From contig JADHYE010000001.1 of NCBI GenBank assembly GCA_016782605.1, positions 11,128 to 75,127 of the forward strand: 64,000 nt of DNA, read 5' to 3'. The DNA comes from Minisyncoccota bacterium. GTDB taxonomy: Bacteria > Patescibacteriota > Minisyncoccia > Minisyncoccales > RBG-13-42-11. Position numbers and translations under genes: made by a program. The notes under the pieces are model-generated. The model made no database searches and was not told the origin of the DNA. It saw nothing but the letters and a program-made list of their open reading frames with translations. This document shows, piece after piece, positions 5,154-59,988 of the stretch (its first letter is position 1; each line of letters begins with the position of its first letter).

Positions 5154-5789
5154 TCATTTTTTCAATAAAGGAACGAAAATAAACCCTGGATGTTCTTTTT
5201 CTTCAAAATCAGTTTCGTTCTTTTTAATTAAAAGCCAGATTGAAGAATCAACCGGAGCAACAATCCTGCCTCCGATTTTCAGCTGCTTTTTCCAAGAATC
5301 GGGAATATTAACAGCACTAGCAGATGCTAAAATCTTGTCAAACCCTTCGACAAACTCAGGGTGAGAGGAGATATTGGGATAACCGTTGTTTCCGTCAAGA
5401 CAGAAAAACTGAACAATCCCCTTTTTAACGAAATTATATTTTGAAACGTTTTTCTCGCCAAAGTCCTTCAATTCCTGGATTATATCAAGGGAAATAACCT
5501 TTCCTTTTTTACCGACAATTTCAGCTAACAAAGCGCTGGTCCAGCCAGAGCCTGAACCAACATCCAAAACCTTATCCCCTTCATGCAAATCCAGCAATTC
5601 CATCATAAAAGCAACAACCAAAGGCTGAGAAATGGTCTGGCCGAATCCTATAGGCAAAGCCTCGTTGATCTCTGCTAAATTCTTTGAGTCTTCCGGCAAA
5701 AAATCGCTTCTCTTTATTTTTTTAAAAGCTTCTATCACTTTCGGCGTTTTCAGCCAGTTATCTTTAATTAGCTCTTCAATAAGCGGCAT
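5154..5789 (-). CDS. pcm: protein-L-isoaspartate O-methyltransferase
   Basis: 211 aa with a SAM-binding motif (VLDVGSGSGW) and a GQTISQP motif typical of Pcm. Confidence 0.85.
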   Translation of the reverse strand: MPLIEELIKDNWLKTPKVIEAFKKIKRSDFLPEDSKNLAEINEALPIGFGQTISQPLVVAFMMELLDLHEGDKVLDVGSGSGWTSALLAEIVGKKGKVISLDIIQELKDFGEKNVSKYNFVKKGIVQFFCLDGNNGYPNISSHPEFVEGFDKILASASAVNIPDSWKKQLKIGGRIVAPVDSSIWLLIKKNETDFEEKEHPGFIFVPLLKK

Positions 5790-5790
5790 A

Positions 5791-5860
5791 CTAGGTAGTA
5801 GAAATTCGACAAATTTATTTTTCTTTGCTGCCAGGCAGCAGTCGAATTTTCACTACCTGG
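5791..5860 (-). mobile_element. family B hairpin (MITE-like) element, copy B1
   Basis: 70 bp. Arms are ctaggtagtagaaattcgac / gtcgaattttcactacctgg. Flanked by cata at 5787-5790 and 5861-5864 (TATG in gene sense). 5789-5787 is the pcm ATG. Confidence 0.7.
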
Positions 5861-6312
5861 CATAGTTTTTGTGGTAAACTCATTTTATCAATAAATAGTA
5901 TTCCGTCCAAGTGGTCAATCTCGTGCTGGAAAACCCTGGCTGACAATCCATCAACTTTCATTTTGATTTTTTCCCCCTGCAGATTAAGAAACTCCAGTTC
6001 CACTTCCTTAGCTCTTTTAATCTTTAAAAACAAACCAGGAAAACTCAAGCATCCCTCTTCCATGACTTCTGTCTTTCTGCTTTTCCGCACGATCTTTGGA
6101 TTTATGAAAACTTGCGACTTTCCTTCAAAAAAAGCAGCGATTATGCTTTTTGATTCGCCGATCTGAGAAGCAGCCAATCCAATGCCGTCTTTTTCCATCA
6201 TTATCTTTTTCATTTCTTCGGCCAATATCTTCACCTCCTCGGTTATCTCCTTGATCGCAGAAGATTTCTTTCTCAGTATTGGATTTGGATATTCTAATAT
6301 TTGCTTACTCAT
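5815..6312 (-). CDS. def: peptide deformylase
   Basis: EGCLSFPG and QHEIDHLDG metal-site motifs. The last ~15 codons (CQVVKIRLLPGSKEK*) and the stop codon are encoded by element B1. Confidence 0.9.
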   Translation of the reverse strand: MSKQILEYPNPILRKKSSAIKEITEEVKILAEEMKKIMMEKDGIGLAASQIGESKSIIAAFFEGKSQVFINPKIVRKSRKTEVMEEGCLSFPGLFLKIKRAKEVELEFLNLQGEKIKMKVDGLSARVFQHEIDHLDGILFIDKMSLPQKLCQVVKIRLLPGSKEK

Positions 6313-10167: not shown

Positions 10168-10500
10168 TTACATATTTCGTCTTGCGCAAAAAGCGTACTG
10201 CAAGAAATAATCATCAAGGTCTTTAAGCGAACTATTGTATTCTTTGCCACCGGTAACAGCATCGCAAAATAATTCTTTTACTCTGGCAATTTCCCTAATT
10301 CTTCCACTCAATCTTGGATCTATAAGAGTCAAATCAAACAACTCCAAAGCCCTGGCAACTGCTCCCCAAAAAGTATCTTCATCTTCCCCCTGCCATTTTC
10401 TAGCCCTGCTAACCTCACTACCGATATTAGCCATTTGCTCAATTAATGAAAGCTTGAACCATCTCCCCGATGAAAGGTCTTTGTGCAAGGTTTTTGTCAT
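10168..10500 (-). CDS. hypothetical helical protein
   Basis: 110-aa ORF. Overlaps the upstream ORF by 4 nt (ATGA-type coupling). Family not recognised with certainty. Confidence 0.4.
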   Translation of the reverse strand: MTKTLHKDLSSGRWFKLSLIEQMANIGSEVSRARKWQGEDEDTFWGAVARALELFDLTLIDPRLSGRIREIARVKELFCDAVTGGKEYNSSLKDLDDYFLQYAFCARRNM

Positions 10501-10847
10501 TGTGAAATTAATTTCTCTACGATATTTCTAATTTTATTCTGGATTTCTGGATTATCAACACTACGAGAACGATTGCCGAATGACGGTTTCAGATTAATAA
10601 CCGAATCGAATTCTATCATTTCTTCTTTATTTTTTCCCGGATATATATTTATCCCCCATGTGCTTTCGCGCCTTGATGTTTCCTTTTCCATTAATATTGC
10701 TTCTTCGTCAGCATGCATTTCTCCGCCCACGGCCATTATCCCCTGATCAATATCAACAACCGCTTTTATCAAATCGCCAAACTGCTCTTTTGCCATGTCA
10801 ATAAGCTCTTTTTTACTTATTGGATCTTTAATAATTTTTATCTCCAT
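10497..10847 (-). CDS. hypothetical protein (resembles the DUF5674-type family, from memory)
   Basis: ORF 10497-10877. The likely start is MEIKIIKDPISKKEL... at 10847. Contains conserved-looking MAVGGEMHADEE and GNRSRSV segments. Confidence 0.45.
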   Translation of the reverse strand: MEIKIIKDPISKKELIDMAKEQFGDLIKAVVDIDQGIMAVGGEMHADEEAILMEKETSRRESTWGINIYPGKNKEEMIEFDSVINLKPSFGNRSRSVDNPEIQNKIRNIVEKLISQ

Positions 10848-23289: not shown

Positions 23290-23315
23290 AGCGGCCTTGA
23301 GAAGGCCGTTTTGCT
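23290..23315 (+). terminator. intrinsic terminator-like hairpin
   Basis: GCGGCCTT-gag-AAGGCCGTTTTG. Confidence 0.55.
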
Positions 23316-23332: not shown

Positions 23333-24391
23333 ATGCTAAAGTACCAAATCATCACTTTCGGTTGCCAGATGAATAAAGCGGATTCAGAAAGAATTGCCAC
23401 GACATTAGAAAAGAAGGGCTATAAGCCGACAAAAGACTCAAACAAAGCCAATCTGGTTTTAATTAACATGTGCTCTGTCAGACAGTCAGCAGTCGATAGG
23501 GTCTATGGTAAAATCAACAATTTGAAAAAGATTAAAGTAAAAAATCCAAAACTTAAAACTATTCTTACTGGCTGTATTCTTAAAAAAGACAAAAGAAAGT
23601 TTGAAAAGTTTTTCGATGAAATTTGGAGCAATAAGAACCATTTCAAAGAAAAAGCCAAATGTCAAAACAAGTCCTTAGCTTTCGTGCCAATTTCCAACGG
23701 CTGCAATAATGCCTGTACTTACTGCGTTGTCCCATATACCAGAGGCGCTTTGAACTGCCGAAGCCATAAAGAAATACTGAAAGAAGCTAAAAGTTTTATT
23801 AAAAAAGGATTAAACCCCATTAGAAATGCGATTTCTAACGGGGCAAGGGAAATCTGGCTTTTGGGGCAGAACGTTAACGATTATCATTCGCCAACGAATA
23901 AAACAATAAATTTTGCCAGGCTTTTGGATCTGATAAATGACATTCCAGGAAACTTTAGGATTCTCTTCACATCTCCCCATCCCAAGAACTTTTCCGACGA
24001 ATTGATTGAGTCTTTAGATCGCTGCCAGAAATTCGGCAATTACCTTAACATACCCGTCCAATCGGGAAATGACCAGATATTAAAGAAAATGAACCGTAAT
24101 TATACGGCCAAAGAATATAGAAAGCTAATAGAAAAAATAAAGAAAAAGATACCGAAAATAAAGTTATCTACCGATATTATCGTCGGCTTTCCAGGAGAAA
24201 CCAAAAAACAGTTCCAAGATACGGTAAAACTGTTTAAAGAGATTAAATTTAACTGGGCCTATATTTCAAAATACTCTCCTCGTCCAGGCACCGCTGCCTT
24301 TAAATTAAAAGATGACATCTCCCTGTCAGAAAAAAAGAAAAGAGAAACCATTTTAAGAGAAATTTTAAAAAAAGCATGGAAAATAAACTAA
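23333..24391 (+). CDS. miaB: radical-SAM methylthiotransferase (MiaB-like)
   Basis: MTTase N-domain (IITFGCQMN) and radical SAM CNNACTYC. Start at MLKYQIITFG. Contains an 11-aa insertion encoded by a palindrome. Confidence 0.8.
   Translation: MLKYQIITFGCQMNKADSERIATTLEKKGYKPTKDSNKANLVLINMCSVRQSAVDRVYGKINNLKKIKVKNPKLKTILTGCILKKDKRKFEKFFDEIWSNKNHFKEKAKCQNKSLAFVPISNGCNNACTYCVVPYTRGALNCRSHKEILKEAKSFIKKGLNPIRNAISNGAREIWLLGQNVNDYHSPTNKTINFARLLDLINDIPGNFRILFTSPHPKNFSDELIESLDRCQKFGNYLNIPVQSGNDQILKKMNRNYTAKEYRKLIEKIKKKIPKIKLSTDIIVGFPGETKKQFQDTVKLFKEIKFNWAYISKYSPRPGTAAFKLKDDISLSEKKKRETILREILKKAWKIN
23815..23843. repeat. 29-bp palindrome with family-C-type arms, in frame inside miaB
   Basis: CCCCATTAGAAAT-GCG-ATTTCTAACGGGG encodes ..PIRNAISNG... 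The arms match C1 and C2 (CCCCrTTAGAAgT). Confidence 0.7.
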
Positions 24392-25260
24392 TCGTCATAT
24401 TGGGACCGACGGCTTCCGGCAAGTCGGATTTGGCCGTTAAAATAGCCAGAAAAATCAAAGCTGAAGTCATATCTGCTGATTCTAGGCAAGTCTACAAGGG
24501 AATGGATATTGGCAGCGGCAAGATAACCAAAAAAGAAATGAAAGGCATCCCCCACCACCTGCTAAACGTTGCTTCACCCAAAAAAAGATTCACGGTCAGC
24601 CAATATCAAATATTAGCAAAAAAAGCAATAAACAAAGTTTTAAAGAAAGGAAAAATCCCAATTTTATGCGGCGGAAGCGGCTTTTACATTCAAGCAGTAA
24701 TCGACGGTATAGCTATTCCAGAAGTAAAACCAGATTATACCTTAAGAATAAAACTTGAAAAGTTTACAACTGAAGAGTTATTCAAAGAATTAAAAAAACT
24801 GGACAAAGAAAGGGCGAAAAACATTGATAAAAACAACAGAAGAAGACTGATTAGAGCTTTGGAGATAGCGATTAAAACAAAAAAACCTATTCCTTCTTTA
24901 AAAAAGAATCCCCTAGCCTATCCTGTTTTGATTATCGGCATTCAAAAAGAAAAAGAAGAACTAAAAAAACTAATACAAAAAAGACTCTCAAAAAGATTAA
25001 AACAAGGAATGATTGAGGAGACAAAGAAACTCCATAAATCAGGAATCTCTTGGCAAAGACTGGAAGAATTTGGCCTGGAATACCGCTTTATCGCTCAATA
25101 TCTCCAGAATAAGATAAACTATGAAGAAGTGGTAGAACGCATACAGAAAGAAAGCGAACAGTTTGTTAAACGCCAAATGACCTGGTTTAAAAGAGATAAA
25201 CGTATTAACTGGATTAAAAACTATTCTGAAGTTGAAAAATTGATAAAAGAATTTATATAA
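24376..25260 (+). CDS. miaA: tRNA dimethylallyltransferase
   Basis: P-loop GPTASGKS and ..SADSRQVYKGMDIG. Confidence 0.9.
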   Translation: MENKLIVILGPTASGKSDLAVKIARKIKAEVISADSRQVYKGMDIGSGKITKKEMKGIPHHLLNVASPKKRFTVSQYQILAKKAINKVLKKGKIPILCGGSGFYIQAVIDGIAIPEVKPDYTLRIKLEKFTTEELFKELKKLDKERAKNIDKNNRRRLIRALEIAIKTKKPIPSLKKNPLAYPVLIIGIQKEKEELKKLIQKRLSKRLKQGMIEETKKLHKSGISWQRLEEFGLEYRFIAQYLQNKINYEEVVERIQKESEQFVKRQMTWFKRDKRINWIKNYSEVEKLIKEFI

Positions 25261-28597: not shown

Positions 28598-29872
28598 TTA
28601 AAATTTGAACTCATCGTAAATGGGAAACTTCTTGGTTATTCTTTCCACCTCGCTCTTAATCAAATTTTTAATTTTCCGGCTATCAATATTTTTAATAAGC
28701 TTGACGATAAGGCGAGTAATCTCCCTTGATTCTTTCTCTTCCAAGCCCCTAGTGGTGATTGCCGGCGTTCCCAACCTAATACCCGAAGGAAAATAAGGAG
28801 GTTTTTTATCAAAAGGAATGGCGCTTCTGTTAACGTAAATGCCAACCTTATCCAATTCGTTCTGAATTTCCTTCGAGCCAACGCTAAAAGGAGAAACGTC
28901 TATTACCATCAAATGATTATCTGTTCCCCCGCTGATTACCCTGATTCCCTGCTTCTGGAATTCATCAGCCATGGCTTTGGCATTCAGAATAATCTGTTTT
29001 TGGTACTTCCTAAAAGAGGGTTTCATTGCTTCCAAAAAGCAAACAGCTTTAGCAGCAATAACATGTTCCATCGGCCCACCCTGGATACCAGGAAAAACAG
29101 CTTTGTCGATTTTTTGCGCTAAATTTAATTTGCTCTTAAGATTAAATCTGTCTTTAATTTTGCAAAGAATCAGTCCTCCGCGAGGGCCCCTAAGAGTTTT
29201 ATGAGTAGTCGTTGTCACGATATCGCACCAGGGGAAAGGATTGGGATGAACACCAGCAATAACCAAACCGGCGATATGAGCGATATCAGCCATTAAATAT
29301 GCTTTAGCTTTATCAGCAATCTTCCTGAACGCTTTAAAATCAAGAGTTCTTGAATATGAGGTTGTGCTGACAATGATTAATTTCGGCTTGAACTTTAAAG
29401 CTATTTTTTTCACTTCTTTCAAATCAATCTTTTCCGTTTCCCGATCAACCCCGTAATGGGAAAAATTATACAATTTTCCGGAAAAATTAACCGGCGAGCC
29501 GTGCGTCAGATGACCACCAGCCGACAAATCAATGCCCAGTACTCTATCCTTATAGTCCAACAACGCTAAATAAACGGCTGCATTCGCCTGGGAACCAGAA
29601 TGGGGCTGAACATTGGCATGTTCTGCCCCAAACAACTTCTTGGCCCTTTCTATGGCTGTCTGTTCAACCTCATCAATGAATTCATTGCCGCTGTAATACC
29701 TTTTATATGGATAACCTTCAGAATATTTATTGCTCAAAGGCGTGCCCATAACAGACAAGACCTCAGGACTGGCGTAATTTTCCGAGGGAATCAAAACAAG
29801 GCCCTGTTTCTGGCGCAAAATCTCCTTTTTAACCAAGTTATATATTTTAGAATCTGATTTTAAAAGCTTCAT
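28598..29872 (-). CDS. glyA: serine hydroxymethyltransferase
   Basis: 424 aa with the PLP-lysine motif TTTTHKTLRGPRGG. Confidence 0.95.
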   Translation of the reverse strand: MKLLKSDSKIYNLVKKEILRQKQGLVLIPSENYASPEVLSVMGTPLSNKYSEGYPYKRYYSGNEFIDEVEQTAIERAKKLFGAEHANVQPHSGSQANAAVYLALLDYKDRVLGIDLSAGGHLTHGSPVNFSGKLYNFSHYGVDRETEKIDLKEVKKIALKFKPKLIIVSTTSYSRTLDFKAFRKIADKAKAYLMADIAHIAGLVIAGVHPNPFPWCDIVTTTTHKTLRGPRGGLILCKIKDRFNLKSKLNLAQKIDKAVFPGIQGGPMEHVIAAKAVCFLEAMKPSFRKYQKQIILNAKAMADEFQKQGIRVISGGTDNHLMVIDVSPFSVGSKEIQNELDKVGIYVNRSAIPFDKKPPYFPSGIRLGTPAITTRGLEEKESREITRLIVKLIKNIDSRKIKNLIKSEVERITKKFPIYDEFKF

Positions 29873-34845: not shown

Positions 34846-34930
34846 CCCCGCACCACTTTGCAGAAGAAATCTTCTTTTTAATATTTTGAAACAACTAATG
34901 AGATTTAAGTTGCATCAAAGTGGTGCGGGG
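34846..34930. mobile_element. family C-like hairpin element, copy C3
   Basis: 85 bp with perfect 15-bp arms ccccgcaccactttg / caaagtggtgcgggg. Flanked by tcaa at 34842-34845 and 34931-34934. Confidence 0.65.
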
Positions 34931-52095: not shown

Positions 52096-52165
52096 CCCCA
52101 TTAGAAGTCCGCCTTGCCGGAGGCATGGCGACAGCCACCAAGGGGGCAGCTTACTTCTAACGGAG
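52096..52165. mobile_element. family C hairpin element, copy C2
   Basis: 70 bp. Arms are ccccattagaagt / acttctaacggag with a GC-rich interior. Flanked by tcaa at 52092-52095 and 52166-52169. Confidence 0.6.
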
Positions 52166-52183: not shown

Positions 52184-52192
52184 AATCATATG

Positions 52193-52264
52193 CCAGGTAG
52201 TGAAAATTCAACCACTGCCGCGGCAGTGAAAAAAATAATAATTTGTCGAATTTCTACTACCTAG
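52193..52264 (+). mobile_element. family B element, copy B3 (inverted relative to B1 and B2, matching its plus-strand gene)
   Basis: 72 bp, flanked by tatg at 52189-52192 and 52265-52268. 52266-52268 is the ATG of the 52266-53570 gene. Confidence 0.7.
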
Positions 52265-52265
52265 T

Positions 52266-53570
52266 ATGACCAAAAAGACAAAAACAATACTGTTTTTAGC
52301 CTGCTTACTTGCATTCATCCTGTTAGCTCCCTCAATAGTCCTGTACTCCCAAGGATACAGAATTGATTTTAATCCTCCAGAAGGCGGAAAAATGATTACC
52401 CAAACCGGAGGCCTTTTTTTGAAAGTCACGCCCAAACAAACAGATATTTATATTGACGGCAAACCTAAAAAAAGAACTGATTTTCTATTCGGTTCTGTTT
52501 TAATTGAAAACCTCATTCCTGGAAAGTACAAAGTAGAAATCAAAAAATTAACCAGCCAGGAAGAATACTATCCCTGGGAGAAAAACCTGGAAATACGGGA
52601 AAAACAGGTAACTGAAGCCAAGAACGTTGTCCTTTTCCCGAAAAACGTTAATTTCAACGTCTTATCAACCAACGTAGAACAGCTTTGGCTTTCTCTGGAC
52701 CAAAAGAAACTAATCTTAAAGGAAAATGAAAAAGCCAGCTGGTCCTTAAAGCTTTACGACCCGGAAAAGAATATAAAAAGCTATTTAATAAGCGACGAGG
52801 ATTTCTTCACGAAAGAACCCCAATTAATCAATCTGAAATTCTCGGGAGACTCAAGAAGTATTAATCTGGAAGTCAGCATAAAAGAAGCAATACAATCTTT
52901 TTCTCTGCAACTTGACCAAGCAAAACCAACTTTAAATAAAAAAACAGCAGCCACAACGACAACTGGAAACGCTGCTATCTCGCAACAAGCAGGCAATGAT
53001 ATATATTATCTGGACAGTTTCGGCTATCTTTTCAGGAATAAAGAAAAGCTGGCAGAAACTCCCTTTCAAACAAAACAAGAAACAGAATATGCTTTAGATA
53101 TTTTCAACGGCAACATATTCTTAAAAGAAAACGACAAACTGTACAAATTCAATTACAATCTGAAAACATTTGAACATTTCTTTGACGGAATCAATATCTT
53201 AAAGCTTTCTCCGGACAATAAAAAACTGCTTTACGCTTCAAACAATGAAATGTGGATTCTTTTCCTGGAAGACAAAATCGACCAGCCGCAGAAAAAATCA
53301 GGAGAGAAAATCTTTTTAATCCGCTTATCAGACCAAATCACAAGCATCTCCTGGATAAACGACAATTACCTGGCTTTTCTTGCCGGCAATACCGTTAAAA
53401 TCATTGAAATAGACGACAGGGACAGAATAAACGTTATAGACATCTTTGAAACAAAAAACCTCCCTCAAGAAGGAAGCATTAATGAAATGTCCTGGAACAG
53501 GTTTGACAATAAAATCTATCTCTTGGACGAAAACGGCTATTTATATAGCTCTAACGTCCTGCTCCCGTAA
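52266..53570 (+). CDS. hypothetical membrane-anchored protein with a PEGA-like domain and a C-terminal propeller-like region
   Basis: 434 aa. N-terminal TM helix, and TDIYIDGKPKKRT...PGKYKVEIKK resembling PEGA. Confidence 0.5.
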   Translation: MTKKTKTILFLACLLAFILLAPSIVLYSQGYRIDFNPPEGGKMITQTGGLFLKVTPKQTDIYIDGKPKKRTDFLFGSVLIENLIPGKYKVEIKKLTSQEEYYPWEKNLEIREKQVTEAKNVVLFPKNVNFNVLSTNVEQLWLSLDQKKLILKENEKASWSLKLYDPEKNIKSYLISDEDFFTKEPQLINLKFSGDSRSINLEVSIKEAIQSFSLQLDQAKPTLNKKTAATTTTGNAAISQQAGNDIYYLDSFGYLFRNKEKLAETPFQTKQETEYALDIFNGNIFLKENDKLYKFNYNLKTFEHFFDGINILKLSPDNKKLLYASNNEMWILFLEDKIDQPQKKSGEKIFLIRLSDQITSISWINDNYLAFLAGNTVKIIEIDDRDRINVIDIFETKNLPQEGSINEMSWNRFDNKIYLLDENGYLYSSNVLLP

Positions 53571-58603: not shown

Positions 58604-59905
58604 CTAATCAATGACCAGATTGAATTTAATCTTACTTAGGTCTTCTGGCACCTTATTGACCCAGAATGGCCAAAACTTGACGCTGGCCCTGGTAATCTTA
58701 GGATAGTTTTCCAAGAAGAGCTTAGCCTCGAGCAAAGACTTTCCTTTTAAGGCGTTTTTAAAGCTGAAAATGTCAACGTCAGCATAGATTTTAGCTGAAA
58801 TTGTCAAAGAAACAGCAATTTTGCCGGTCTCTAAATCAACATCGTCAATAGAATAATTTATTTTCAAACTTTCCTCATAAAGCTTTTTATCCTGGGGAAT
58901 TTGAAAAGTAATCGCTTCTTTAACGTAATTCCTAATATCTTCTTTCTTAAACACTACGACTTGGCATTGCGCTTTCACCTGATAATTAAAGTCTTTTGCT
59001 TCTGTTTCAGCAGAAGTCAAAGAAAAGTTCTCAATAATTTCTGTCTGGATGCTGTCTGGCAAATAATCGAACTTGGAAGAAATCGCTTCTGACTGCAGTT
59101 CTTTCTGCAGCAGTTCATTGCATTCTTTCTCCGCTTGTTTTGTTAAAGTTTCTTCAGCTTGAGATAAATCCTTTTCTGTCACTTTAGCAATTTCTTCATG
59201 GAAGCCGCCTGCCATTGCTTCAAAAGATTCGCCGTAGAATTTAGTATACCTGTCTGTGCCGGCAAATCCCGGTACGGAGAACTTGGTCAAAGCGATATTG
59301 TATTCTTCGCCAGGCTGATCTGCCACCACTTTTACATCTATTTCTCCTGGAACAAGCTTTCCTTTCTCATAAGTACCTCCAGGAACAGTAACTTTGATTG
59401 GCGTGCGGAATACCTTTCCGTCAGCTGAAACAAAACGGGTAGTGGCTATTAAAACCTGCTGCGAAGTTGAATAGGCATTGTACACTTTTATTGTGCCTTG
59501 CGCCTTCTCCTCTTTCATAATTTTACCGGAAGCCGGAAAAGTCTGAACAATGGTTTTTTCTTTCTGAAGCGTTTCTGCCGGAATAATCTTTAAAAGAGAA
59601 TCAATAGCTGTTGCGTTTTTGTCGATATTCGTTTCTTCTATAAGATTAAAAACTTCTGTCTCCGGCCAAACGCTTATTTCAGCTTTAGACAAAGCAATGT
59701 AGCAAAACGCTCCCAATAAAACCAAAAAAAGCAAAGAAAAAGTCAAACCCTTTTTAAAGGGTGGATTAGGAGCTTTTTTAGGAAAACCCCACAAAGGAAC
59801 CTTGGGCTTTTGCTCTAGTTCTATCTTTACTTCTGGCTCTTTGTGCTCCTCCTTTTTTTTCTCTTTTTTCGAAGGAGGGAAAACGTCTATTACTTTTTTG
59901 CTCAT
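58604..59905 (-). CDS. hypothetical membrane-anchored protein
   Basis: 433-aa ORF with a Lys-rich N-terminus and one TM helix. No family recognised. Confidence 0.45.
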   Translation of the reverse strand: MSKKVIDVFPPSKKEKKKEEHKEPEVKIELEQKPKVPLWGFPKKAPNPPFKKGLTFSLLFLVLLGAFCYIALSKAEISVWPETEVFNLIEETNIDKNATAIDSLLKIIPAETLQKEKTIVQTFPASGKIMKEEKAQGTIKVYNAYSTSQQVLIATTRFVSADGKVFRTPIKVTVPGGTYEKGKLVPGEIDVKVVADQPGEEYNIALTKFSVPGFAGTDRYTKFYGESFEAMAGGFHEEIAKVTEKDLSQAEETLTKQAEKECNELLQKELQSEAISSKFDYLPDSIQTEIIENFSLTSAETEAKDFNYQVKAQCQVVVFKKEDIRNYVKEAITFQIPQDKKLYEESLKINYSIDDVDLETGKIAVSLTISAKIYADVDIFSFKNALKGKSLLEAKLFLENYPKITRASVKFWPFWVNKVPEDLSKIKFNLVID

Positions 59906-59906
59906 A

Positions 59907-59979
59907 CCAGGTAGTAGAAATTCGACTAATTAAACATTATTATCACTGCCGCGGTAGTGGTCGAATTTTCACTACCTGG
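59907..59979 (-). mobile_element. family B element, copy B2
   Basis: 73 bp, flanked by cata at 59903-59906 and 59980-59983. 59905-59903 is the ATG of the 58604-59905 gene. Confidence 0.7.
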
Positions 59980-59988
59980 CATAATAAT

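Follow-up and report, generated by a model that had tools for sequence, protein, structure and literature searches.

Among the closest described counterparts of the element analysed here are the Rickettsia palindromic elements (RPEs), which measure about 100-150 bp and are confined to Rickettsia (Ogata et al. 2000, 2002, as cited in PMC10969869). They are palindromic repeats that lie in frame within unrelated housekeeping genes, at positions compatible with the fold, and are translated there. A second precedent is provided by the GC clusters of the yeast mitochondrial gene var1, which are inserted in frame and are optional between strains; their AG or TAG terminal repeats have been seen as target duplications, and they are recombination hotspots associated with unidirectional gene conversion (PMC8811140). 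The byps, or translational bypassing elements, of Magnusiomyces capitatus mitochondria are short blocks, dozens of them, that derive from palindromic GC clusters, lie within protein-coding genes and stay in the mRNA (Lang et al. 2014, via PMC5009743 and PMC8811140). The MITEs, among them Correia, ERIC, BOX and the Coxiella QMITE1 and QMITE2, are non-coding multi-copy elements with terminal inverted repeats and target duplications of variable sequence, which sometimes overlap or extend ORFs; QMITE2 is 150-190 bp and QMITE1 300-400 bp long (PMC10969869, PMC5896051). Finally, REPs and REPINs, which RAYT transposases mobilise, are multi-copy, hairpin-forming palindromes 20-40 bp long that are often terminator-like in intergenic positions; one end of the REP bears the tag GTAG or CGTC (PMC3733652). 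Against this background we propose that a 29-nt palindrome in a bacterial miaB gene is probably a minimal member of a family of tiny mobile elements that is widespread and occurs in frame within housekeeping genes in uncultivated bacteria of the candidate phyla radiation (CPR), and that it is translated in frame, with a single origin and a patchy spread, and we regard its standing as an in-frame mobile palindrome of the RPE-like kind as real.

The palindrome lies in the window, by which we mean the whole stretch of 64,000 nt that was analysed, within the first of the following features:

23333-24391, plus strand: miaB-like radical-SAM methylthiotransferase gene, from an ATG, supported by the ORF list, Pfam and NCBIfam
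23811-23814, plus strand: left flank TAAA, where the left copy of a 4-nt duplication would be expected
23813-23845, plus strand: insertion of 33 nt (11 codons) relative to empty alleles, supported by protein alignments, the L097/L096 indel and the gap in 7MJV
23815-23827, plus strand: left arm CCCCATTAGAAAT, invariant in 10 unique alleles
23828-23830, plus strand: loop triplet GCG, encoding Ala166, compared across filled alleles
23831-23843, plus strand: right arm ATTTCTAACGGGG, identical to the family consensus
23844-23847, plus strand: right flank CAAG, where the right copy would be expected

The host ORF encodes 352 aa from the ATG at 23333, with an upstream TTG start at 23297 also possible, and miaA (24376-25260) begins before its stop. 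The product contains the UPF0004 (PF00919) and Radical_SAM (PF04055) domains, with a CNNACTYC motif that fits CxxxCxxC, and exceeds the cutoff of NCBIfam TIGR00089 (MiaB/RimO) with 361.8 bits; its score for the MiaB equivalog, 329.7, is below the cutoff of 355.3. The protein lacks a C-terminal TRAM domain and ends at about profile position 361 of 429, and most of its close homologues are likewise 330-350 aa long and without PF01938. The name miaB rests on the family match together with the adjoining miaA; a 100% identical protein (P0001) bears the source name 'MiaB/RimO family ... Candidatus Pacebacteria'. The preliminary description had placed a palindrome in frame in miaB and ascribed 11 extra residues to it, and the coordinates, the ORF and the translation all agree: the reading KKG-LNPIRNAISNG-AREIWLLGQNV is right, the inserted codons N161-A171 being AAC CCC ATT AGA AAT GCG ATT TCT AAC GGG GCA, with boundaries that can shift by 1-2 nt because of A/AG microhomology. 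Read directly from the sequence, the 29 nt at 23815-23843 (CCCCATTAGAAAT-GCG-ATTTCTAACGGGG) form a hairpin with 13 pairing positions, one of which is an A.C mismatch (G.U or G.T on the minus strand) that results from the A at position 5 of the left arm, a base peculiar to the miaB copy and departing from the family consensus CCCCGTTAGAAAT. The loop is the sole part of the element that differs among lineages (GCG, GCA, AAA, GAG or ACG). Outside the element the left flank TAAA, which is TAAA, CAAA, TGAA, TTAA or TTAG depending on the lineage, fits the YNNR rule of the family given below but mismatches the right flank CAAG, which is the same in all filled miaB alleles; the absence of an intact duplication is thus as originally claimed. 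A structure model had been recommended for deciding whether the insert is a surface loop, and the AlphaFold model of the host protein (mean pLDDT 81.9) does put it, as residues 160-172, in a low-confidence loop that follows helix 145-157 and leads into strand 172-177; pLDDT falls below 50 at residues 163-168 of the protein. We infer that MiaB tolerates the insert and that the enzyme is presumably still functional. The window contains four tight hairpins with 13-nt arms, at most one mismatch and a loop of 2-6 nt, where a first-order Markov model predicts 0.52, so that a single one is unremarkable by itself; the miaB palindrome is marked as non-random by matching a repeat family and by recurring in homologues.

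Elsewhere in the window lie two longer members of the same family, C1 and C2, and one member of a sister family:

34846-34930, no strand assigned: 85-nt CCCC..GGGG palindrome of the sister family, flanked by TCAA/TCAA
43327-43455, no strand assigned: C1, a 129-nt family member, flanked by TTCA/TTCA
52096-52163, no strand assigned: C2, a 68-nt family member with arms CCCCATTAGAAGT / ACTTCTAACGGAG, flanked by TCAA/TCAA

The miaB palindrome had been credited with the same arms as C1 and C2; they are indeed similar, having 11-12 of 13 positions in common, but they are not identical. C1, with 18-nt perfect terminal inverted repeats (ACCCCGTTAGAAGTTTGC) and CCCCGTTAGAAGT on both arms, is intergenic between two minus-strand ORFs and has reverse-orientation homologues in L097 and L098, while C2 is intergenic between divergent ORFs; the sister element, also intergenic, has different arms (CCCCGCACCACTTTG) and the same end structure as the family. 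A metagenome scan for the arms yielded at least 120 loci, and 126 unique copies of 28-56 nt were analysed. Perfect 4-nt direct repeats flank 81 of these 126 listed copies and one-mismatch repeats 16 of them, compared with 2 of 126 in the control formed by the next 4 nt outwards; among the matches listed, all the perfect repeats are YNNR (81/81), and CAAG/CTTG ranks as the second commonest duplication. The earlier arithmetic of 29 bp plus a 4-bp duplication making 33 nt is thereby substantiated, as it is by a 100-nt family copy in L097, the corresponding site of which is cleanly empty in the close relative L096 and has TAAA only once. The consensus ends of the family are CCCCGTTAGAA(A/G)T ... 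A(T/C)TTCTAACGGGG, its elements (28-131 nt) are too short for a protein of their own, and the metagenomic contigs that carry copies are, among the matches listed, of Patescibacteria type and others, with 29-58% GC.

Terminal inverted repeats, a duplication of variable sequence and many dispersed non-coding copies are features that the family shares with MITEs. It differs from the examples named above in its far smaller mobile units of 28-40 nt, in having no known parent IS and in a duplicated tetranucleotide that is locked to orientation: in a 40-nt subfamily, represented at different loci by at least 30 copies whose cores are nearly identical, TAAA and never TTTA is the flank (22 of 22) once the loops are put in a common orientation. 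Insertion in either orientation, expected of symmetric DDE cut-and-paste, is therefore a criterion that this subfamily does not meet. The locked flank makes a classical DDE mechanism less credible to us without casting doubt on mobility, and, being unexpected of a symmetric cut-and-paste transposase, it counts against the explanation that we favour. From the ends and the duplication length an IS family could only be guessed at: IS1380-like elements have 'CC' ends and duplications of 4-5 bp. In about 2.2 Mb of fetched loci we found neither an autonomous partner, defined by an ORF between family ends that are separated by 150-4000 nt and share their duplication, nor a transposase or recombinase flanked by family ends; the end pairs with the same duplication in these loci, larger collections not being covered, are separate small elements. 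A search for phage carriage gave one match among 2.9 million viral contigs, and this lies outside miaB. Exact-sequence and concept searches of the literature retrieved no description of these elements in CPR/Patescibacteria, and the family is apparently undescribed so far.

The copies within genes keep the reading frame. Among the matches listed, the length plus four is a multiple of three in 26 of the 29 copies that lie in ORFs of at least 200 aa and in 23 of the 74 in ORFs of less than 100 aa; the three exceptions in the former set occur at relative ORF positions of 0.06 or less, and the 19 internal copies are, every one, in the PVR..SNG frame and give peptides of the form PVRN..ISNG. The interrupted hosts include IF-2 (infB), RpoC, PheRS-alpha (pheS), MurB, a CDC48-like AAA ATPase, TatD and the CCA enzyme. 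The likeness to RPEs drawn in the preliminary description is borne out by these in-frame copies in many housekeeping genes; furthermore, in both systems several families occur per genome and the mobilising enzyme is unknown. The present elements are set apart by their length of 28-56 nt (up to about 130), by their 4-nt YNNR duplications and by their occurrence in Patescibacteria-type and other contigs, and because both the 29-nt size and the host phylum differ we claim an analogy only and not membership among the RPEs. If this is true, CPR bacteria have their own version of the selfish DNA that occupies protein-coding genes in Rickettsia, which explains why segments of the types PVRN..ISNG(V) and PLEI..FLTG recur among predicted CPR proteins; for gene calling and phylogenetics it means that unrelated lineages score too high in similarity when they carry such inserts. 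From the kept frame and the lack of stop codons we infer, on frame statistics alone, that the miaB insert is most likely transcribed and translated as ..NPIRNAISNGA...

As to its origin, we posit a minimal element of two 13-nt terminal inverted repeats and a 3-nt loop that, like the other family members, would have inserted with duplication of a 4-nt YNNR target. The resulting 33 nt would have entered the codons of the loop that leads from the first helix to the second strand of the radical-SAM barrel, preserving the frame and avoiding stops, so that the element would be transcribed and translated. All miaB copies have CAAG as their right flank and share a G-to-A change within the left arm, from which we infer one insertion; the simplest putative target for it would be ..GGN GCA AGG GAA.. 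(G-A-R-E) with CAAG duplicated. Because the flanks of the miaB copy, TAAA and CAAG, do not make an intact duplication, the event that inserted it is a reconstruction and not an observation, which counts against our explanation. The subsequent scatter of the filled allele may then reflect inheritance, deletion between microhomologies, and recombination that exchanged empty for filled alleles or filled for empty ones, all of which are inferred routes. Plain insertion into an empty site of the L001 type (GGATTTAAAGAA) was considered and rejected: duplication of TAAA there gives CCC CAT TAG in frame and hence a stop, so that the filled allele did not arise from that site in this manner.

The preliminary description gave MiaB homologues without an insert at this position, and this holds for the nearest relatives and for the solved MiaB 7MJV but not for all distant lineages, some of which carry the same insert. 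The nearest relatives (P0002-P0006, 80-93% identical) have an empty site reading KKGF-KEIW, and against the closest homologues, of 90-94% identity, the insertion measures exactly 11 codons; the alignment to 7MJV (..AKGYKEVTLLGQNV..) has a single 11-residue gap just before the KEI motif, which HMMER sets slightly upstream of the insert; and the pair L097/L096, 97.8% identical, displays a clean 33-nt indel. The insert is absent from all 80 species-representative loci, and none of these empty loci has the paired family motif, which is found only in loci with a filled miaB. About 32 of the best 120 protein clusters contain the insert, with a well-conserved peptide (NPIRNAISNGAR), and it occupies the identical site in many Paceibacteria-type lineages. 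The insertion is not private to the source genome; it is a recurrent, patchily spread allele. Furthermore, the finding that would have refuted a palindromic origin, namely an equivalent loop without palindromic DNA in unrelated lineages, did not emerge, as the distant homologues with the loop have the same palindrome, nucleotide for nucleotide.

The state of the insert has almost no phylogenetic signal: on an NJ tree, poorly resolved at that depth, it takes 23 parsimony steps for 32 filled leaves, and in random shuffles the number of steps averaged 28.5 and never fell below 22. This distribution is among the points that make a homing-like spread conceivable, though we hold it doubtful, whereby the filled miaB would be driven into empty alleles via DNA uptake and break-induced or biased gene conversion, and the identical arms would be read as recent common ancestry and not as selection. 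Three near-identical gene pairs (99.5, 97.8 and 94.1% DNA identity) differ in state, and between the window or L087 and their empty near-twins the junction codons differ too (TTA..AGG versus TTT AAA, L..R versus F..K), which resembles co-conversion of flanking markers; these particular changes of state are therefore not simple in-situ insertion or excision, a point that also weighs against the explanation we favour. Highly diverged patches adjoin the element in pairs that are otherwise 96-98% identical, P0014 and P0035 have a common two-element patch of 92-97% DNA identity on a backbone of 70-78%, and var1 offers the precedent (PMC8811140). However, no endonuclease or cut site has been identified, and the junction types GLNP, GFSP, GFNP and RAVNP group by clade, which implies substantial vertical descent; recency alone does not account for a loop and a left junction that have diverged beside undiverged arms; and the weak resolution of the tree at the relevant depth detracts from the argument based on it. 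Likewise, among the fetched lineages there is no donor closer than 79% for the window's diverged 150-nt patch, the import of which is suggestive only, and this patch may simply be a fast-evolving surface region. Separately, a recombination breakpoint at the insert in L087/L094, hinted at by BLAST segments, was discarded, the mismatch map placing the divergence from about 1.5 kb downstream. If the reading that we favour is right, the inserts also offer a convenient marker for strain-level variation and recombination.

A further difficulty for the single mobile insertion that we prefer comes from the arms themselves. Across 10 unique miaB alleles none of the 26 arm positions varies while all three loop positions do, and third codon positions vary at 0 of 9 sites in the arms and at 53 of 57 in the flanks. 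The A.C mismatch is kept although a synonymous change of AAC to AAT would restore pairing, and the insert codons are fixed against the gene's own usage (CCC, AGA, TCT and GGG, each 8/8). A neutral relic should decay at synonymous sites, and the undecayed arms thus count against our favoured explanation; the puzzle is that the insert, 11 codons in a dispensable loop, comes and goes between near-identical strains and yet has arms that are synonymously frozen. This invariance next to saturated flanks, along with the retained mismatch, could be accommodated if the hairpin had been exapted and its arms were under selection, as a protein-binding site, as an mRNA or antisense control of miaB-miaA, or as an uptake-type signal subject to molecular drive. 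The RNA fold of the minus strand is much stabler than that of the plus strand (-18.9 versus -13.5 kcal/mol, with z-scores of -5.8 and -2.9), which would fit such a role, as would the one-armed remnant in L093 from which the C is gone (ATTTCTAATGGGG). We nevertheless consider an exapted hairpin unlikely: most close relatives have no insert, some filled lineages (P0033, P0084 and P0088) have decayed at the protein level, and the 4-nt duplications point to spread by insertion and not by mutation with uptake bias. Covariation is lacking for want of variation, and an Rfam gathering scan of the whole window detected tRNAs only and no family matching the hairpin.

We regard it as very improbable that the insert is left untranslated, whether through ribosome bypass, as in the byps of Magnusiomyces and T4 gene 60, or through removal from the mRNA. 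In size and nature it is like the byps, which are short coding inserts derived from palindromic GC clusters, and a GGA codon precedes the element with a GGG codon near its end; but the selection for frame and stop avoidance (26/29) would be needless in a segment that is skipped, and the codon after the putative take-off codon is neither a stop nor rare. The byps break the frame and are hopped by the ribosome, whereas the present elements are selected for frame and most likely translated; GLNPIRNAISNGAR would be the peptide expected from translation of the insert, and ..KKG-(A)REIW.. the junction peptide in the event of bypass. The notion of a native loop of a MiaB subfamily, with the palindrome coincidental or a by-product of the well-conserved peptide, can hardly be sustained when the codons are invariant against the gene's own usage, the same arms recur with target duplications at more than 100 unrelated loci that are not miaB fragments, the nearest relatives are empty, and other palindromic elements occupy the same or adjoining sites in P0078/P0086 and P0014/P0035.

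The preferred reading, a translated mobile palindrome, also invites comparison with the remaining known systems. The var1 clusters are likewise short palindromic mobile elements that lie in frame and are present or absent between strains; they are organellar and G+C-rich throughout, with 2-3-nt repeats, in contrast to the present bacterial elements, which have an A+T-rich stem with a CCCC/GGGG clamp and 4-nt repeats, and for which a conversion drive is only suspected. REPs are typically extragenic, whereas the present elements are frequent inside genes, start with CCCC and have 4-nt duplications. The GTAG/CGTC tag is absent from the family ends (CCCC/GGGG), and the absence of a duplication, a criterion for REP/REPIN, is not met, as 4-nt repeats flank most of the listed copies; HUH-type mobilisation is not known to produce a target duplication. 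We tentatively raise the possibility, for which the present support is limited, that these elements constitute a new class of ultra-small mobile DNA, comprising CCCC/GGGG-clamped palindromes of 28-56 nt. The orientation-locked flank suggests that they bring a 4-nt core of their own; they would move by means of a hairpin or a recombinase and not of a classical transposase, and would lie in frame in essential CPR genes, the miaB copy being kept identical in deeply diverged lineages by homing-like conversion drive or by an acquired sequence-specific function. Mobile units of 28-56 nt would place a constraint on the possible means of mobilisation. The boxes of integron attC sites are GTTRRRY/RYYYAAC, and the likeness of GTTAGAA/TTCTAAC to them was judged coincidental, the order of the boxes being reversed and the last base misfitting.

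The palindrome reported in the preliminary description was confirmed, and we found it to lie in frame within a miaB-like ORF (23333/23297-24391) whose product contains the Pfam UPF0004 and Radical_SAM domains, belongs to the NCBIfam MiaB/RimO subfamily, lacks a TRAM domain and is 100% identical to the protein P0001, by its source from a 'Candidatus Pacebacteria' MAG:

23815-23843, miaB palindrome, CCCCATTAGAAAT-GCG-ATTTCTAACGGGG, between the flanks TAAA and CAAG, unequal as first read
24376-25260, miaA, directly after the miaB-like ORF

The arms pair at 12/13 positions, and as the opposite strand has G.U in place of the coding-strand A.C mismatch, the minus strand folds more stably both as RNA (-18.9 versus -13.5 kcal/mol) and as DNA (-10.4 versus -8.6). 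The window has 4 hairpins of such tightness in all, against 0.5 expected; therefore, the palindrome alone is not decisive and its context counts. With the longer intergenic family members C1 (43327-43455) and C2 (52096-52163) it has 11-12/13 arm positions in common, such that the proposed sharing of arms holds for most, not all 13, positions. A further tight hairpin of opposite polarity (GGGGCTGAACA-TTGG-CATGTTCTGCCCC) occurs at 29601-29630, inside the minus-strand ORF 28598-29872. MiaB proteins of this clade generally lack the TRAM domain, most matches being 325-390 aa long, and in P0039 and P0105 (633-634 aa) MiaB is fused to MiaA, with the IPPT domains within one protein.

Where the window has KKG-LNPIRNAISNGA-REIW, the five nearest homologues, at 80-93% identity, have KKGF-KEIW; the 11-residue segment is missing from all 80 species-representative miaB loci, and an alignment with the Bacteroides MiaB of known structure (7MJV) has one gap, of 11 residues, in this region, bearing out the claim of an in-frame addition. 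In an AlphaFold2 model based on 76 homologues (mean pLDDT 81.9), residues 160-172 form a loop that connects helix 145-157 to strand 172-177 and whose pLDDT falls below 50 at 163-168. Since the helix-to-strand loops of (beta/alpha) barrels are found on the side away from the active site, it is plausible, as an inference from the predicted structure, that MiaB tolerates the insert.

A metagenome scan with the pattern CCCCRTTAGAART-N(0-30)-AYTTCTAAYGGGG matched at least 120 loci, all ascertained with exact arms. Of 126 unique copies of 28-56 nt among the matches listed, 81 were flanked by perfect 4-nt direct repeats and a further 16 by repeats with one mismatch, against 2/126 for identity of the next 4 nt outwards. 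All 81 perfect repeats have the form YNNR (47 TAAA/TTTA, 9 CAAG/CTTG), with G at -5 and C at +5 in the family-copy flanks. Furthermore, the locus L097 reads ..GAT-TAAA-[100-nt element]-TAAA-TCAG.. where the 97.8%-identical L096 reads ..GAT-TAAA-TCAG.., a filled/empty pair that confirms the 4-nt duplication; the repeats and the single TAAA of L096 also uphold the earlier arithmetic of 29 + 4 = 33 nt. One 40-nt subfamily has 30 occurrences with near-identical cores at different loci among these matches, and units so small must therefore themselves be mobile. Together these data establish the mobility of the family and a 4-nt duplication with YNNR preference. Genomes with filled miaB have further family copies nearby, against 0 in the 80 empty species-representative loci; viral contigs gave only 1 match in 2.9 million. 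Rfam returned no match, and full-text searches of the searchable literature gave no description of such elements in bacteria of the candidate phyla radiation (CPR). Ultra-small elements of this kind are widespread among CPR-type metagenomic contigs, the host taxonomy of most matches being undetermined.

In the 40-nt subfamily the flank is locked to the orientation of the element (TAAA 22/22, TTTA never), which is unexpected for symmetric cut-and-paste and hints either at orientation-specific integration or at a core, formed by the four flanking bases, that travels with the element. A search of the fetched loci revealed no ORF with family ends on both sides. Copies such as L201 1804-1856, L202 6583-6635 and many of 40 nt (e.g. 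L100, L163, L189) are frequently located directly upstream of the leader of a type IV pilin or joined to it; the end of the element and its flank encode ..FLTGFT, which continues into the prepilin motif GFTLIE(L)LVV. In L098 (~1580-1610) a 31-nt A/T-run palindrome (AAAAAGAACATATCGTTCTTTTTTT, flanks CCAA/CCAA) is nested in a family-C element and is absent from the otherwise identical L097 copy (~8985).

Frame selection is also shown: length plus four is a multiple of 3 for 26/29 copies in ORFs of at least 200 aa against 23/74 in ORFs below 100 aa (metagenome matches listed), the three long-ORF exceptions all being at the extreme 5' end. All 19 internal copies are in the frame giving PVR(N)..ISNG(V/A), while the PLEI..FLTG frame is found near N-termini. 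Given these frame statistics, ribosomal bypassing is unlikely. The interrupted proteins include, by Pfam, IF-2, a CDC48-like AAA ATPase, MurB, a radical-SAM enzyme, PheRS-alpha, RpoC, TatD and CCA/poly(A) polymerase and, by eye, ValRS. The object is an RPE-like (Rickettsia palindromic element), MITE-like in-frame palindrome, and the interpretation first offered is supported; it resembles the RPEs in lying in frame within genes, here in another phylum, but its units are much smaller.

About 32 of the best 120 homologue clusters have the same segment (NPIRNAISNGAR, with small variants) at the same place, a ranking inflated toward filled alleles since the insert contributes to the score. DNA was retrieved for eight of these filled clusters, and 10 unique filled alleles were compared; the palindrome is present wherever the loop exists, and homologues with an equivalent loop lacking palindromic DNA, which would have refuted the reading, were not encountered. 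Across these alleles the 26 arm nucleotides are invariant and the A.C mismatch is always retained; 0/9 third codon positions vary in the arms against 53/57 in the flanking codons. All 3/3 loop positions vary (GCG, GCA, AAA, GAG, ACG), as does the left junction (TAAA, CAAA, TGAA, TTAA, TTAG), while the right flank is CAAG in 10/10. The arm codons (CCC, AGA, TCT, GGG, AAC) run contrary to the codon usage of the gene. These alleles demonstrate a nucleotide-level constraint, or an equivalent process, on the arms. Three explanations for the absence of drift remain open. We rank first a homing-like or gene-conversion drive, for which the var1 GC clusters offer a parallel, followed by an acquired sequence-specific function; hairpin-templated correction comes last, as it does not explain the preserved mismatch.

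All miaB copies have a left-arm G-to-A change, where generic family copies have G, together with the right flank CAAG; these common features favour one founding event over repeated arrivals from resident copies, as far as sequence allows. Simple insertion at GGATTTAAAGAA, the common form of the empty site, was rejected: it would result in an in-frame TAG. Instead, insertion into GGN-GCA-AGG-GAA (G-A-R-E) with CAAG duplicated would directly give ..G-A-S-P-V-R-N-x-I-S-N-G-A-R-E..; this reconstruction remains an inference. The G-A-R-E state is present in P0068 and P0115, and L090 (GCA AAC CCC) and L097 (TTT AGC CCC) look like intermediates.

On a neighbour-joining tree of the best 120 proteins with the insert masked (a single gene, weakly resolved), insert state requires 23 changes for 32 filled leaves, against a mean of 28.5 and minimum of 22 in random shuffles; junction types are nevertheless grouped by clade. 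Three near-identical gene pairs differ in insert state. L097 and L096 differ by a clean indel of 33 nt with AG on either side, which fits a deletion across the hairpin. In window/L001 (94.1%) and L087/L094 (99.5%) adjacent codons differ too (TTA..GCA AGG versus TTT AAA), and these would accordingly be allele replacements, not in-situ events. Strongly diverged patches adjoin the element both in L097 and in the window, where the patch at 23880-24020 has 83-85% identity versus ~96% elsewhere. L219 and L087 have a common two-element patch of 92-97% identity on a 70-78% backbone, with 0 changes in the arms and 6 in the 38-nt loop of the first element. Recurrence and turnover of the allele are thus evident, and the miaB copy combines unusual conservation with unusual mobility between strains.

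Over its locus L001 has 89-98% segment identity to the window (miaB ~94%); L001 and several other species-representative loci, whose records bear the title 'uncultured Candidatus Saccharibacteria' or 'Gammaproteobacteria', are Paceibacteria-type miaB loci, and the titles look unreliable. The miaB site accepts more than one family, since L088 (10472-10555) and L089 (P0078, P0086) have there a longer, different palindromic element (arms CCCCCACACCAAGCGAGGAT .. ATCCTCGTTATGGTGTGGGGG, encoding HPHTKRG..NPRYGVGV). In L087 (10558-10620) and L219 (P0035, P0014) the first element is preceded, at a distance of 16 nt, by another in-frame one (59 nt + 4; CACCCCGTTAGAGAA..TTCTCTAACGGGGT, encoding HPVRESKEITYPQRDGFSNGV); the 99.5%-identical L094 gene lacks this second element. 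L093 (~10500-10540; P0048) retains a one-armed remnant (..KNAISNGAREIW, with ATTTCTAATGGGG, C to T, and no left arm) that looks like a deletion derivative of a filled allele.

Other repeats and selfish elements also occur. The thrS of L087 (8246-8289) has an extra in-frame 45 nt (VEELRSSSRFANARV) relative to L094 (~6303), with flanks otherwise 100% identical, containing the small palindrome GAAGAAC-TTC-GTTCTTC; close by, the same intergenic slot has different CCCC..GGGG hairpins in each strain. Inteins occur close to miaB in dnaE of L097 (2745-7139; Intein_splicing and LAGLIDADG_3) and gyrB of L084 and L086, and L083 has a free-standing LAGLIDADG gene (1143-1613), so that essential genes here are host to selfish DNA of other kinds as well. 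The window also has at least 7 copies of another, MITE-like element (TIRs ATACCC(C/T)GTATATCAACATCCAG / CTGGATGTTGTATTACGGGGCAT) and a third repeat family (arms ATAC(C/T)AGGTAGTAGAAATTCGAC / GTCGAATTTTCACTACCTGGCAT), one copy of which adjoins C2:

13346-13483, 36861-37031, 41788-41925, 47105-47254, 47809-47946, 54738-54875 and 57051-57188, ~138-nt MITE-like copies
5788-5863, 59904-59982 and ~52191-52266, ~76-79-nt repeat copies
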